From the IMG/VR virus record IMGVR_UViG_3300002461_000252, positions 1 through 43,108 of that record: DNA of 43,108 nt. One strand, written 5' to 3'. Below the pieces are notes generated by a model, which saw only the letters and a list, made by a program, of their open reading frames with translations, did not search any database and had not been told where the DNA came from. This stretch comes from a virus. Made by a program: the position numbers and the translations under genes. Positions 34,286 through 34,976 of this stretch are shown one piece after another; the first letter of the stretch is position 1, and each line of letters begins with the position of its first letter.

Positions 34286-34473
34286 GCCGCAAAGTTTGTC
34301 CCGTGGTAGATGCGAGACTTGGCAACAGGCGTTCGAGCGTTGTTCCAACAAATCTCATGATGGTGCGGGCAATAGCTAGACTTGTCCTGCTTAGGGTCGC
34401 CGCAGAACAGAAATGGGCCATCGCCGGTAGGGTAACGGCATTCGTTATCTTCCAGATCAACGAGCGTCTTCAT
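34282..34473 (-). CDS. mini-GcrA: protein resembling only the C-terminal region of GcrA (63 aa)
   Basis: LVDLEDNECRYPTGDGPFLFCG....SSYCPHHH matches the C.WP.GD...F.FCG...YC..H block of GcrA. There is no N-terminal GcrA HTH. ATGA-coupled. Confidence 0.7.
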   Translation of the reverse strand: MKTLVDLEDNECRYPTGDGPFLFCGDPKQDKSSYCPHHHEICWNNARTPVAKSRIYHGTNFAA

Positions 34474-34976
34474 AGCATTGCCTCCACGTGGGCCACGTCG
34501 TAAGCGATTTTCCAATCCGCCAGGATACCAGCCTCAATCTTCCGCGCGCCGTGCAGCACCGTGGTATGATCCCGCCCGCCAAACTGACGGCCGATTTCCG
34601 GGAGCGAGCGCGTCGTAAGTTGTCGGGCTAGGTACATCGCCACGTGCCGGGGATAGACCACGTTCTTGGTGCGGCGCTCCGAGTTGAAGTTGACTTTAGT
34701 AATGTTGAAATGGCGACAGGCCGCGCGCCGGATATCGTCGATCCTGGGTTCGTCCCGAGTGACATCCATCTCCCCGATCACAGAAAACCAAATCTTCTTC
34801 GGTTCCGGATCGACCGTCGCTACCGCAACCTGGGGCGGGCTTGGCGCCACCACCACCTCGGCTGGAAGGGCTACGTTGAAATCGTGATGTGCCTGCATCG
34901 ATGCAAGCAATTTTGCTGATCCATTCCGGGCGCCTGCAATCTGCTGTGGGGCGCAATCGCTTATCAACTGCGGCAT
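34470..34976 (-). CDS. DnaA domain-IV (DNA-binding) protein lacking the AAA+ module
   Basis: [41 protein letters not shown] is a near-canonical DnaA C-terminal HTH. The N-terminal 90 aa are unrelated and have no Walker A. GGAGGGG SD. Confidence 0.9.
   Translation of the reverse strand: [168 protein letters not shown]

Follow-up and report, generated by a model that had tools for sequence, protein, structure and literature searches.

The virus record IMGVR_UViG_3300002461_000252 of IMG/VR comprises 43,108 nucleotides, and this whole stretch, which we refer to as the window, makes up the essentially complete genome of a temperate phage. In its leftward early operon, we analyzed a gene for a DnaA-like protein of 168 amino acids, in the following called DnaAIV. 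DnaAIV is a member of the Bac_DnaA_C family and not a DnaA; it consists of the DNA-binding domain IV of the initiator, preceded by a leader with a helix and a proline-rich linker. The gene and its parts are arranged as follows:

34470..34976, minus strand: coding sequence of DnaAIV, 168 aa, a stand-alone DnaA domain IV, with ATG start and TGA stop (open reading frame list, PF08299 match)
34982..34986, minus strand: Shine-Dalgarno sequence GGAGG, 6 nt 5' of the DnaAIV ATG (sequence)
34878..34955, minus strand: codons of the N-terminal helix, aa 8-33, with the family motif LLxxLxxHHD (AlphaFold2 confidence score of about 76-82, alignments)
34743..34877, minus strand: codons of the proline-rich, low-confidence linker, aa 34-78 (AlphaFold2, alignment)
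34473..34742, minus strand: codons of DnaA domain IV, aa 79-168, with helix-turn-helix, basic loop carrying R102 (corresponding to Arg399) and recognition helix DHTTVLH (Pfam, PDB match, AlphaFold2, Foldseek)

The open reading frame (ORF) had been placed at exactly these coordinates in the original prediction, which was made from the DNA letters alone, and the peptide quoted there corresponds to residues 108-148 of DnaAIV.

DnaA domain IV as a stand-alone phage protein

In Pfam, Bac_DnaA_C (PF08299) matched residues 79-147 of DnaAIV over the full model length (positions 1-69 of 69), with an E value of 6.4e-29 and 100.2 bits against a cut-off of 31.5. No second Pfam family was matched, and the AAA+ domain with its Walker motifs (PF00308) gave no hit at E values up to 1. 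DnaAIV is thus neither a complete DnaA nor a member of another helix-turn-helix family. The NCBIfam model of DnaA (TIGR00362) aligned with its C-terminal positions 342-436 of 437 only and reached 107.5 bits, compared with a whole-protein cut-off of 343.9. The closest PDB entries by sequence were B. subtilis DnaA (8btg, 2.7e-20) and E. coli domain IV (1j1v, 1.1e-18). An AlphaFold2 model built on 31 relatives had predicted local distance difference test (pLDDT) scores above 95 across residues 79-167, and Foldseek superimposed this model on 1j1v_A with a root-mean-square deviation of 0.7 Å over 90 columns and a target-normalized template modeling score of 0.93. A helix of 15 residues that is specific to the family ends the domain IV segment. 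The original prediction had described the last roughly 75 residues as a near-canonical DnaA C-terminal helix-turn-helix; profile match and fold bear out the identity of the domain, but it extends over about 90 residues.

The part in front of it accordingly is a leader of 78 residues instead of the roughly 90 first assumed. That it carries neither Walker motifs nor any of the DnaA domains I-III agrees with the missing AAA+ match and with a comparison to domain I: when the profile of the family N-terminus was aligned by hhalign with a domain I profile for which five full-length DnaA sequences from related loci were used, no similarity was found (probability 0.2%). Within the linker, W63 and F64 (nt 34785-34790) are the sole invariant residues outside domain IV among 15 diverse family members, and a Trp-Phe pair in a disordered, proline-rich segment looks like a short docking motif. 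Because DnaAIV is devoid of domains I, II and III, we predict that it can bind but cannot initiate.

The identical protein was called as a gene on nine public contigs, and among the carriers of DnaAIV are contigs about 43 kb long, from an NCBI metagenome-assembled genome (MAG) and from activated-carbon metagenomes. More generally, phages commonly carry stand-alone DnaA C-terminal proteins, and the rarity implied by the original prediction did not hold. A pattern scan with subsequent confirmation found a relative on at least 562 IMG/VR contigs, and DnaA C-terminal proteins are present in GenBank phages of Bradyrhizobium, Rhizobium, Brucella and Aurantimonas. In the viral structure library, dozens of entries of 90-200 residues, including some from uncultured Caudovirales, bear the UniProt name 'Chromosomal replication initiator, DnaA C-terminal'. 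Other relatives are found in clusters named 'helix-turn-helix domain-containing protein', from Bradyrhizobium and from an Arenimonas-labeled MAG with GapR at that locus. A plasmid search yielded mostly chromosomal dnaA filed as plasmids, together with one 67-kb Bradyrhizobium plasmid that carries a short relative. The PADLOC models of defense systems gave no match to DnaAIV at E values up to 0.01. DnaAIV belongs to this catalogued, functionally uncharacterized class of phage stand-alone DnaA C-terminal proteins. In the literature we found no functional characterization of any of them, and membership in the class hence gives no mechanism.

We examined 84 related loci, 55 of which code for proteins of at most 215 residues and form what we call the short class, with the window counted as its 56th locus. 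The remaining loci code for DnaA of full length, for proteins made of domains III and IV, or for domain IV joined to other extensions. In a neighbor-joining tree of domain IV sequences from short and full-length proteins, 62 short proteins formed one pure clade, and the tree was otherwise mixed. Full-length DnaA, comprising domain I, Walker A and domain IV, was seen on the IMG/VR contigs L009, L010, L014, L030 and L040, with GapR directly upstream of it in L009 and L030. These contigs may be phage-plasmids, or host DNA included in prophage calls.

Base-contacting residues, DnaA boxes and the putative phage origin

In DnaA, helix 434-451 reads TnCACA and Arg399 reads TTA of the DnaA box, and the exchanges R399A or T435M abolish box binding (PMC5742627, a review). 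According to the PDB alignment, R102, P126, D136, H137, T138 and H142 of DnaAIV correspond to R399, P423, D433, H434, T435 and H439 of E. coli DnaA. We followed the contact residues through 148 unique short relatives: R407 and H434 were kept in all 148, D433 in 147, T435 in 146, R399 in 145, P423 in 144 and H439 in 126 of them. Overall identity among 31 aligned relatives of DnaAIV amounts to only 36-61%. Contact residues kept at 85-100% despite this divergence argue for selection on one constant DNA target.

DnaA boxes were counted in the window and in the 84 loci as the word TTATCCACA with up to two mismatches, as TTWTNCACA and as core words, with expectations from shuffles and Markov models. 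In the window, TTATCCACA with at most one mismatch occurred at 3 sites, compared with 4.4 expected; with at most two mismatches there were 72 sites, compared with 75.7 expected and without any cluster, and TTWTNCACA was found once (1.5 expected). The 84 related loci contained 82 boxes where 93.8 were expected, and a second count gave 24 against 21, with no conserved position. Across the window and these loci, DnaA boxes were neither enriched, clustered, position-conserved nor avoided. Related phages have nothing that corresponds to the one consensus DnaA box of the window (31139-31147), and we treated this box as a chance occurrence.

The simplest reading of these comparisons is that the DnaAIV family has been selected to recognize DnaA boxes, and that these boxes would lie on the host chromosome. 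A stand-alone domain IV is in itself not new; our contribution is the argument, drawn from comparison, that the target read by the family is constant and does not lie in the phage.

Domain IV also bears on an alternative explanation, in which DnaAIV would be a decoy that counteracts RIDA, DnaA's regulatory inactivation. The surface around Leu422/Pro423 would titrate HdaA, DnaA-ATP would accumulate and the host would over-initiate, as was first proposed for HdaB, a stand-alone domain IV homolog of Caulobacter (CCNA_01111) also known as GafY. HdaB homologs cause over-initiation and raise DnaA levels, and HdaB interacts with HdaA (PMC7049699). In DnaAIV, L125 and P126 correspond to Leu422 and Pro423, with the Leu kept in 116 and the Pro in 144 of the 148 relatives. 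DNA contacts would not be needed for such a decoy, however, and HdaB, only 32% identical to DnaA domain IV, has no Arg399 equivalent (PMC7049699), yet in the DnaAIV family these contacts are kept almost throughout. Furthermore, a reinterpretation traces the HdaB phenotype to the induction of gene transfer agents (PMC9632790), and over-initiation of the host would seem to be without obvious benefit for a phage that borrows the replisome. We hence regard a decoy function of DnaAIV as very unlikely.

A candidate for the replication origin of the phage lies downstream of DnaAIV in the same operon:

32115..32789, minus strand: Rep, 224 aa, replisome-organizer-like, with a basic RQQRYRDR stretch in a short N-terminal region (gene call)
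32488..32634, minus strand: putative phage origin inside the Rep gene (iterons and AT-rich stretch)

The original prediction had pointed to CGTTAC iterons at 32529-32630, and the repeats are real: seven copies of CGTAACG on the minus strand occupy 32537-32631 with 10-11 bp spacing, i.e., in helical phase, and a 35-bp AT-rich stretch follows at 32488-32522. CGTAACG occurs eight times in the whole window, compared with 3.8 expected. In phage lambda, the origin is found within the linker-coding part of the initiator gene. The C-terminal domain of Rep is weakly DnaT-like (PF17948, E 0.0024-0.0032, below the gathering score), and Rep matches replication-initiation families of PHROG, again weakly (E 3e-4). 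Its relatives have HTH_36/DnaD_N-like or DUF1376 N-termini.

Related phages carry repeat arrays at the same place in Rep, although the repeats differ (CGTAACG, TTCCACC, GACGCAGGA, GGGACAG and CCCCGCA). CGTAACG phages have one Rep N-terminus in common and TTCCACC phages share another one, whereas the 20-residue recognition segment of DnaAIV was identical in the seven phages examined, which represent five iteron types. As the N-terminus of Rep changes with the iteron type, Rep, and not DnaAIV, is the probable origin binder and would act as the initiator. DnaAIV as an iteron binder is disfavored, and with it the earlier suggestion that it could nucleate phage replication at these repeats; the iterons lie in the separate Rep gene and vary with the Rep N-terminus, not with the DnaA-like recognition helix.

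DnaAIV might still serve phage replication as an accessory factor that works together with Rep at or near the origin. Its helix and Trp-Phe pair could then serve to dock the sliding clamp, Rep or the helicase of the host, with domain IV keeping hold of the DNA, and the protein would be the functional equivalent of a lambda P-like adaptor. The position of the gene in the early module, between the CI/Cro switch and Rep, would suit this role, as would the presence of a Rep-type gene within 4.5 kb downstream in 38 of the 49 short-class loci with enough sequence. In other phages, the gene adjoins a DUF1376 protein (Rhizobium phage RHph_N28_2) or a primase (Aurantimonas phage AmM-1). A weak PHROG match of DnaAIV to a 'replication initiation protein' family and the resemblance of W63-F64 to a docking motif point in the same direction. 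On the other hand, DnaA boxes do not exceed chance in or near the origin or anywhere else in the phage, and the recognition helix stays constant across iteron types, in contrast to the Rep N-terminus. Near-total conservation of base-specific contacts is moreover unexpected if only non-specific DNA contact were needed, and DnaAIV has no domain I, the known helicase-recruiting part of DnaA. On balance, we consider an accessory role in phage replication rather unlikely.

The early operon and its genome context

The features that surround DnaAIV and Rep, and others in the window to which we refer below, are:

34986..35348, minus strand: up120, a 120-aa gene and frequent left neighbor of the family (gene call; no significant Pfam match)
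34282..34473, minus strand: mini-GcrA, 63 aa, the C-terminal sigma-70-interacting part of GcrA only (PF07750 positions 99-147 of 155, E 1.9e-9; NCBIfam sig70cofacGcrA positions 107-155 of 173)
32995..33246, minus strand: GapR homolog, 83 aa (PF10073, E 2.9e-21)
31157-31708: orf183, conserved at this position in nine related loci
31004-31033, minus strand: intrinsic terminator (-19.5 kcal/mol, z -3.5) with UUUUU after it, located between orf183 and the packaging genes
36504-36818: CI-type repressor, 104 aa (public gene calls are split between 104 and 217 aa)
1040-1115: complete tRNA-Thr (TGT)
2620-3672: tyrosine integrase
42049-42324, plus strand: small protein with an Acb2/Tad1 hairpin domain (PF24729, E 2.5e-14)

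DnaAIV sits in an early replication and recombination module 3' of the CI/Cro switch. The leftward operon runs from up120 via DnaAIV, mini-GcrA, RusA, three small ORFs, GapR, a 69-aa ORF and Rep to further small ORFs, the terminator and the packaging genes, and start and stop codons overlap at most of its junctions. ATGA stop/start overlaps link DnaAIV, mini-GcrA and RusA. Relatives of up120 were found by jackhmmer in 18 of the 84 loci, and about a dozen of them end at most 100 nt from the DnaAIV start. A 13-nt initiation region, CATCAGCCCCTCC on the plus strand, is repeated exactly at 34974-34986 for DnaAIV and at 35346-35358 for up120.

Mini-GcrA and GapR lie on the same strand as DnaAIV and within 1,982 bp of its start, as had been proposed for an operon with these two homologs inside 2 kb; RusA and small ORFs intervene. 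The further proposal of three mimics of cell-cycle factors holds in this phage but is only partly general, because GapR is present downstream of DnaAIV in 27 of the 56 short-class loci, and a GcrA-like gene is near in 5 of the 84 loci. At least four of these five GcrA-like proteins have 188-218 residues (about 190-220) and are thus not mini-sized. We rejected mini-GcrA as an obligate partner of the family on the basis of these counts. Among other neighbors of the short class, a CI/Cro-type gene is found upstream in 20 loci, an ERF recombinase in 16 and RusA directly downstream in 8. Mini-GcrA is devoid of the DNA-binding N-terminus of GcrA, and it could compete with host GcrA in a dominant-negative manner. 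As GapR and GcrA are alphaproteobacterial proteins, the host very probably is an alphaproteobacterium.

The proximity of a DNA-binding and a polymerase-binding protein raises the question of a role in transcription. GafY activates gene-transfer-agent promoters and binds sigma-70 domains 3-4 (PMC9632790, PMC11150451). By this precedent, DnaAIV could bind promoter-upstream sites of phage or host and recruit RNA polymerase, maybe together with the translationally coupled mini-GcrA, a sigma-70-cofactor fragment that would be made along with it by virtue of the ATGA overlap. The strong terminator just 5' of the late genes suggests antitermination-controlled late expression and hence implies a regulated step that such an activator could serve.

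Several observations nevertheless speak against an activator of the GafY type. DnaAIV is far nearer to DnaA, with its 107 bits to TIGR00362, than to two NCBIfam models of short, DnaA-C-like proteins of Alphaproteobacteria (PRK06030), NF004688 (20 bits, cut-off 136) and NF004687 (18.4 bits, cut-off 181), which we assume to stand for GafY/HdaB. The Arg399 equivalent, absent from HdaB/GafY, is kept, and the binding element of GafY contains ACTATG and is not a DnaA box. Neither in this phage nor in its relatives did the late genes have a conserved site resembling a DnaA box on their 5' side, and the GcrA-like neighbor is restricted to the few loci given above. A better candidate for a late regulator is the conserved orf183, directly 5' of the terminator; NusG-like genes are found in three related loci. 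An activator role for DnaAIV thus appears quite unlikely to us. DnaAIV as a member of the GafY/HdaB group was likewise set aside, given the published description of HdaB, the NCBIfam scores and the retention of R102 (in 145 of the 148 relatives).

Besides the tyrosine integrase and the CI-type repressor, which is flanked by operators, the window codes for a portal of the P22 type and for terminase, capsid and tail proteins. Rad52, SSB, NinB, HNH nucleases and the Acb2/Tad1-like protein are encoded on the arm that diverges from CI. Neither helicase, primase, helicase loader nor polymerase was recognized among the proteins of the window. A phage that brings Rad52, SSB, NinB and RusA but apparently no helicase, primase or polymerase depends on the replication proteins of its host.

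Around the repressor, a minus-strand ORF at 36185-36505 overlaps the longer of the two CI gene calls. Inverted repeats of the type TAGGACAnnnnTGTCCTA at 36430-36501 and 36914-36962 flank CI and are probably the operators of two divergent early promoters. At about 37600-38000, 9-nt units (GAGCAGCCC and variants) are repeated in tandem at least 17 times, and this long array gives rise to EQP/PEQ-repeat ORFs on both strands. The tRNA-Thr gene, 1.5 kb from the integrase, marks the likely attachment-site region. No exact match to this tRNA was found in 185,579 species-representative genomes, a degenerate-pattern scan of the genome collection for the family C-terminal signature AYDVAHVE gave no match, and a search with the portal protein returned distant cyanophage matches only. 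Judged by its domain, the Acb2/Tad1-like protein is likely a sponge for cyclic-nucleotide signals of host defense.

A possible competitor of host DnaA, and known systems

We tentatively favor a reading in which DnaAIV, an early protein, competes with DnaA by occupying the DnaA boxes of the host; this seems to us quite possible, although we would not yet call it probable. Made early in the lytic cycle, DnaAIV would be a free-standing reader of DnaA boxes without the parts of DnaA that oligomerize, bind ATP, open DNA and recruit helicase. Binding to host boxes at oriC and at DnaA-controlled promoters would block or re-time DnaA action. With host initiation halted, the phage would have replisome and precursors at its disposal, and its own origin would be served by the separate Rep. 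The N-terminal helix and the Trp-Phe pair in the flexible linker would probably dock a partner.

The composition of the protein agrees with this proposal, since a box-binding domain IV without the capacity for oligomerization, ATP hydrolysis, DNA opening or helicase recruitment should be a competitor of DnaA. For a phage that borrows the host replisome and fires its own origin via Rep, an early stop of host initiation would also make sense. A precedent for prophage genes that damp host initiation, which supports our reading, is YfdR of the cryptic E. coli prophage CPS-53; it binds DnaA domain I around Phe46 and damps initiation at oriC (PMC4776307). The original prediction, that the protein could occupy host DnaA boxes and block or re-time initiation, fits both the conservation of contact residues and the missing box enrichment in the phage, whereas we infer the binding itself, its location on the host chromosome and its inhibitory effect.

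A number of points weigh against a competitor. The location of the gene in a replication and recombination module with a Rep-type gene following in most loci (38 of 49) equally suggests a role in phage replication, as do domain IV in longer proteins or next to a primase in some phages (Aurantimonas phage AmM-1) and the weak PHROG matches of DnaAIV to the 'replication initiation protein' family. The DnaA boxes of alphaproteobacterial origins are typically weak, and at such sites a monomeric domain IV may be a poor competitor. Finally, the one stand-alone domain IV protein that has been studied, GafY/HdaB, is a transcription activator that was first reported as an HdaA binder (PMC9632790, PMC7049699).

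In a more far-reaching form, we may speculate that DnaA domain IV proteins are a widespread phage weapon acting by dominant-negative mimicry. They would shut off host initiation together with the DnaA regulon, while the phage origin, free of boxes and with its own Rep, would stay unaffected. In the present phage, the co-made mini-GcrA would hit the second of two successive steps, DnaA and then GcrA, in the cell-cycle circuit of Alphaproteobacteria, and the Trp-Phe pair would dock a further host factor. In its entirety, this scenario is somewhat doubtful.

How temperate phages without replication enzymes divert the host replisome is poorly understood outside E. coli, and worst of all in bacteria that use DciA and not DnaC. 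A small, common and easily purified protein that has kept the DnaA-box reading head alone provides a direct handle on this question. If DnaAIV does compete with DnaA, it would be a natural, sequence-specific initiation inhibitor and could become a tool to arrest or synchronize replication and a probe of DnaA-regulated promoters in Alphaproteobacteria. Confirmation of the dominant-negative model, maybe in combination with the sigma-70-binding GcrA fragment, would make the protein highly interesting; if DnaAIV were only a replication accessory, an ordinary refinement of annotation would be left. Phage genes of this kind may also be the ancestors of GafY and GafA, which are DnaA-like and activate gene transfer agents.

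Among known systems, cellular DnaA is closest. Its domain IV (E. coli residues 374-467, 1J1V) shares 43-53% identity with DnaAIV, and every base-contacting residue as well as the fold are the same. In contrast to cellular DnaA, DnaAIV has 78 residues with a helix, a proline-rich linker and the Trp-Phe pair instead of domains I-III. It also has an extra, family-specific C-terminal helix, and its gene is part of a phage early operon. The same architecture, with about 90-215 residues and PF08299 only, is found in EVB88_078 of Rhizobium phage RHph_N28_2 and in hypothetical proteins of the Bradyrhizobium phages ppBjS10J-1 and ppBeUSDA76-2. The Bradyrhizobium phages also resemble the window in gene order, with small ORFs followed by GapR/DUF2312 and, in ppBeUSDA76-2 only, by DUF1376. 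The closest GenBank phage member shares 46% identity with DnaAIV across the domain; in their N-terminal parts, these proteins are different.

GafY/HdaB of Caulobacter and the N-terminal part of Rhodobacter GafA are like DnaAIV short, alphaproteobacterial and tied to a phage-derived element. GafY is co-transcribed with its polymerase-binding partner GafZ, a sigma-like anti-terminator; the gene downstream of DnaAIV codes for a C-terminal GcrA fragment. As in the O/P module of lambda, iterons and an AT-rich region lie inside an initiator gene, here Rep, but no P-like helicase loader was recognized. With a recognition helix that stays the same while the iterons vary, DnaAIV itself would not be the O-like component. 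Hda/HdaA is also a single-domain DnaA paralog that acts on DnaA function. It is cellular, however, and represents the complementary fragment, namely domain III with a clamp-binding motif and without the DNA-binding domain. YfdR, in turn, is unrelated in sequence and resembles DnaAIV in the presumed outcome only; DnaAIV is predicted to bind DNA sites and not DnaA.

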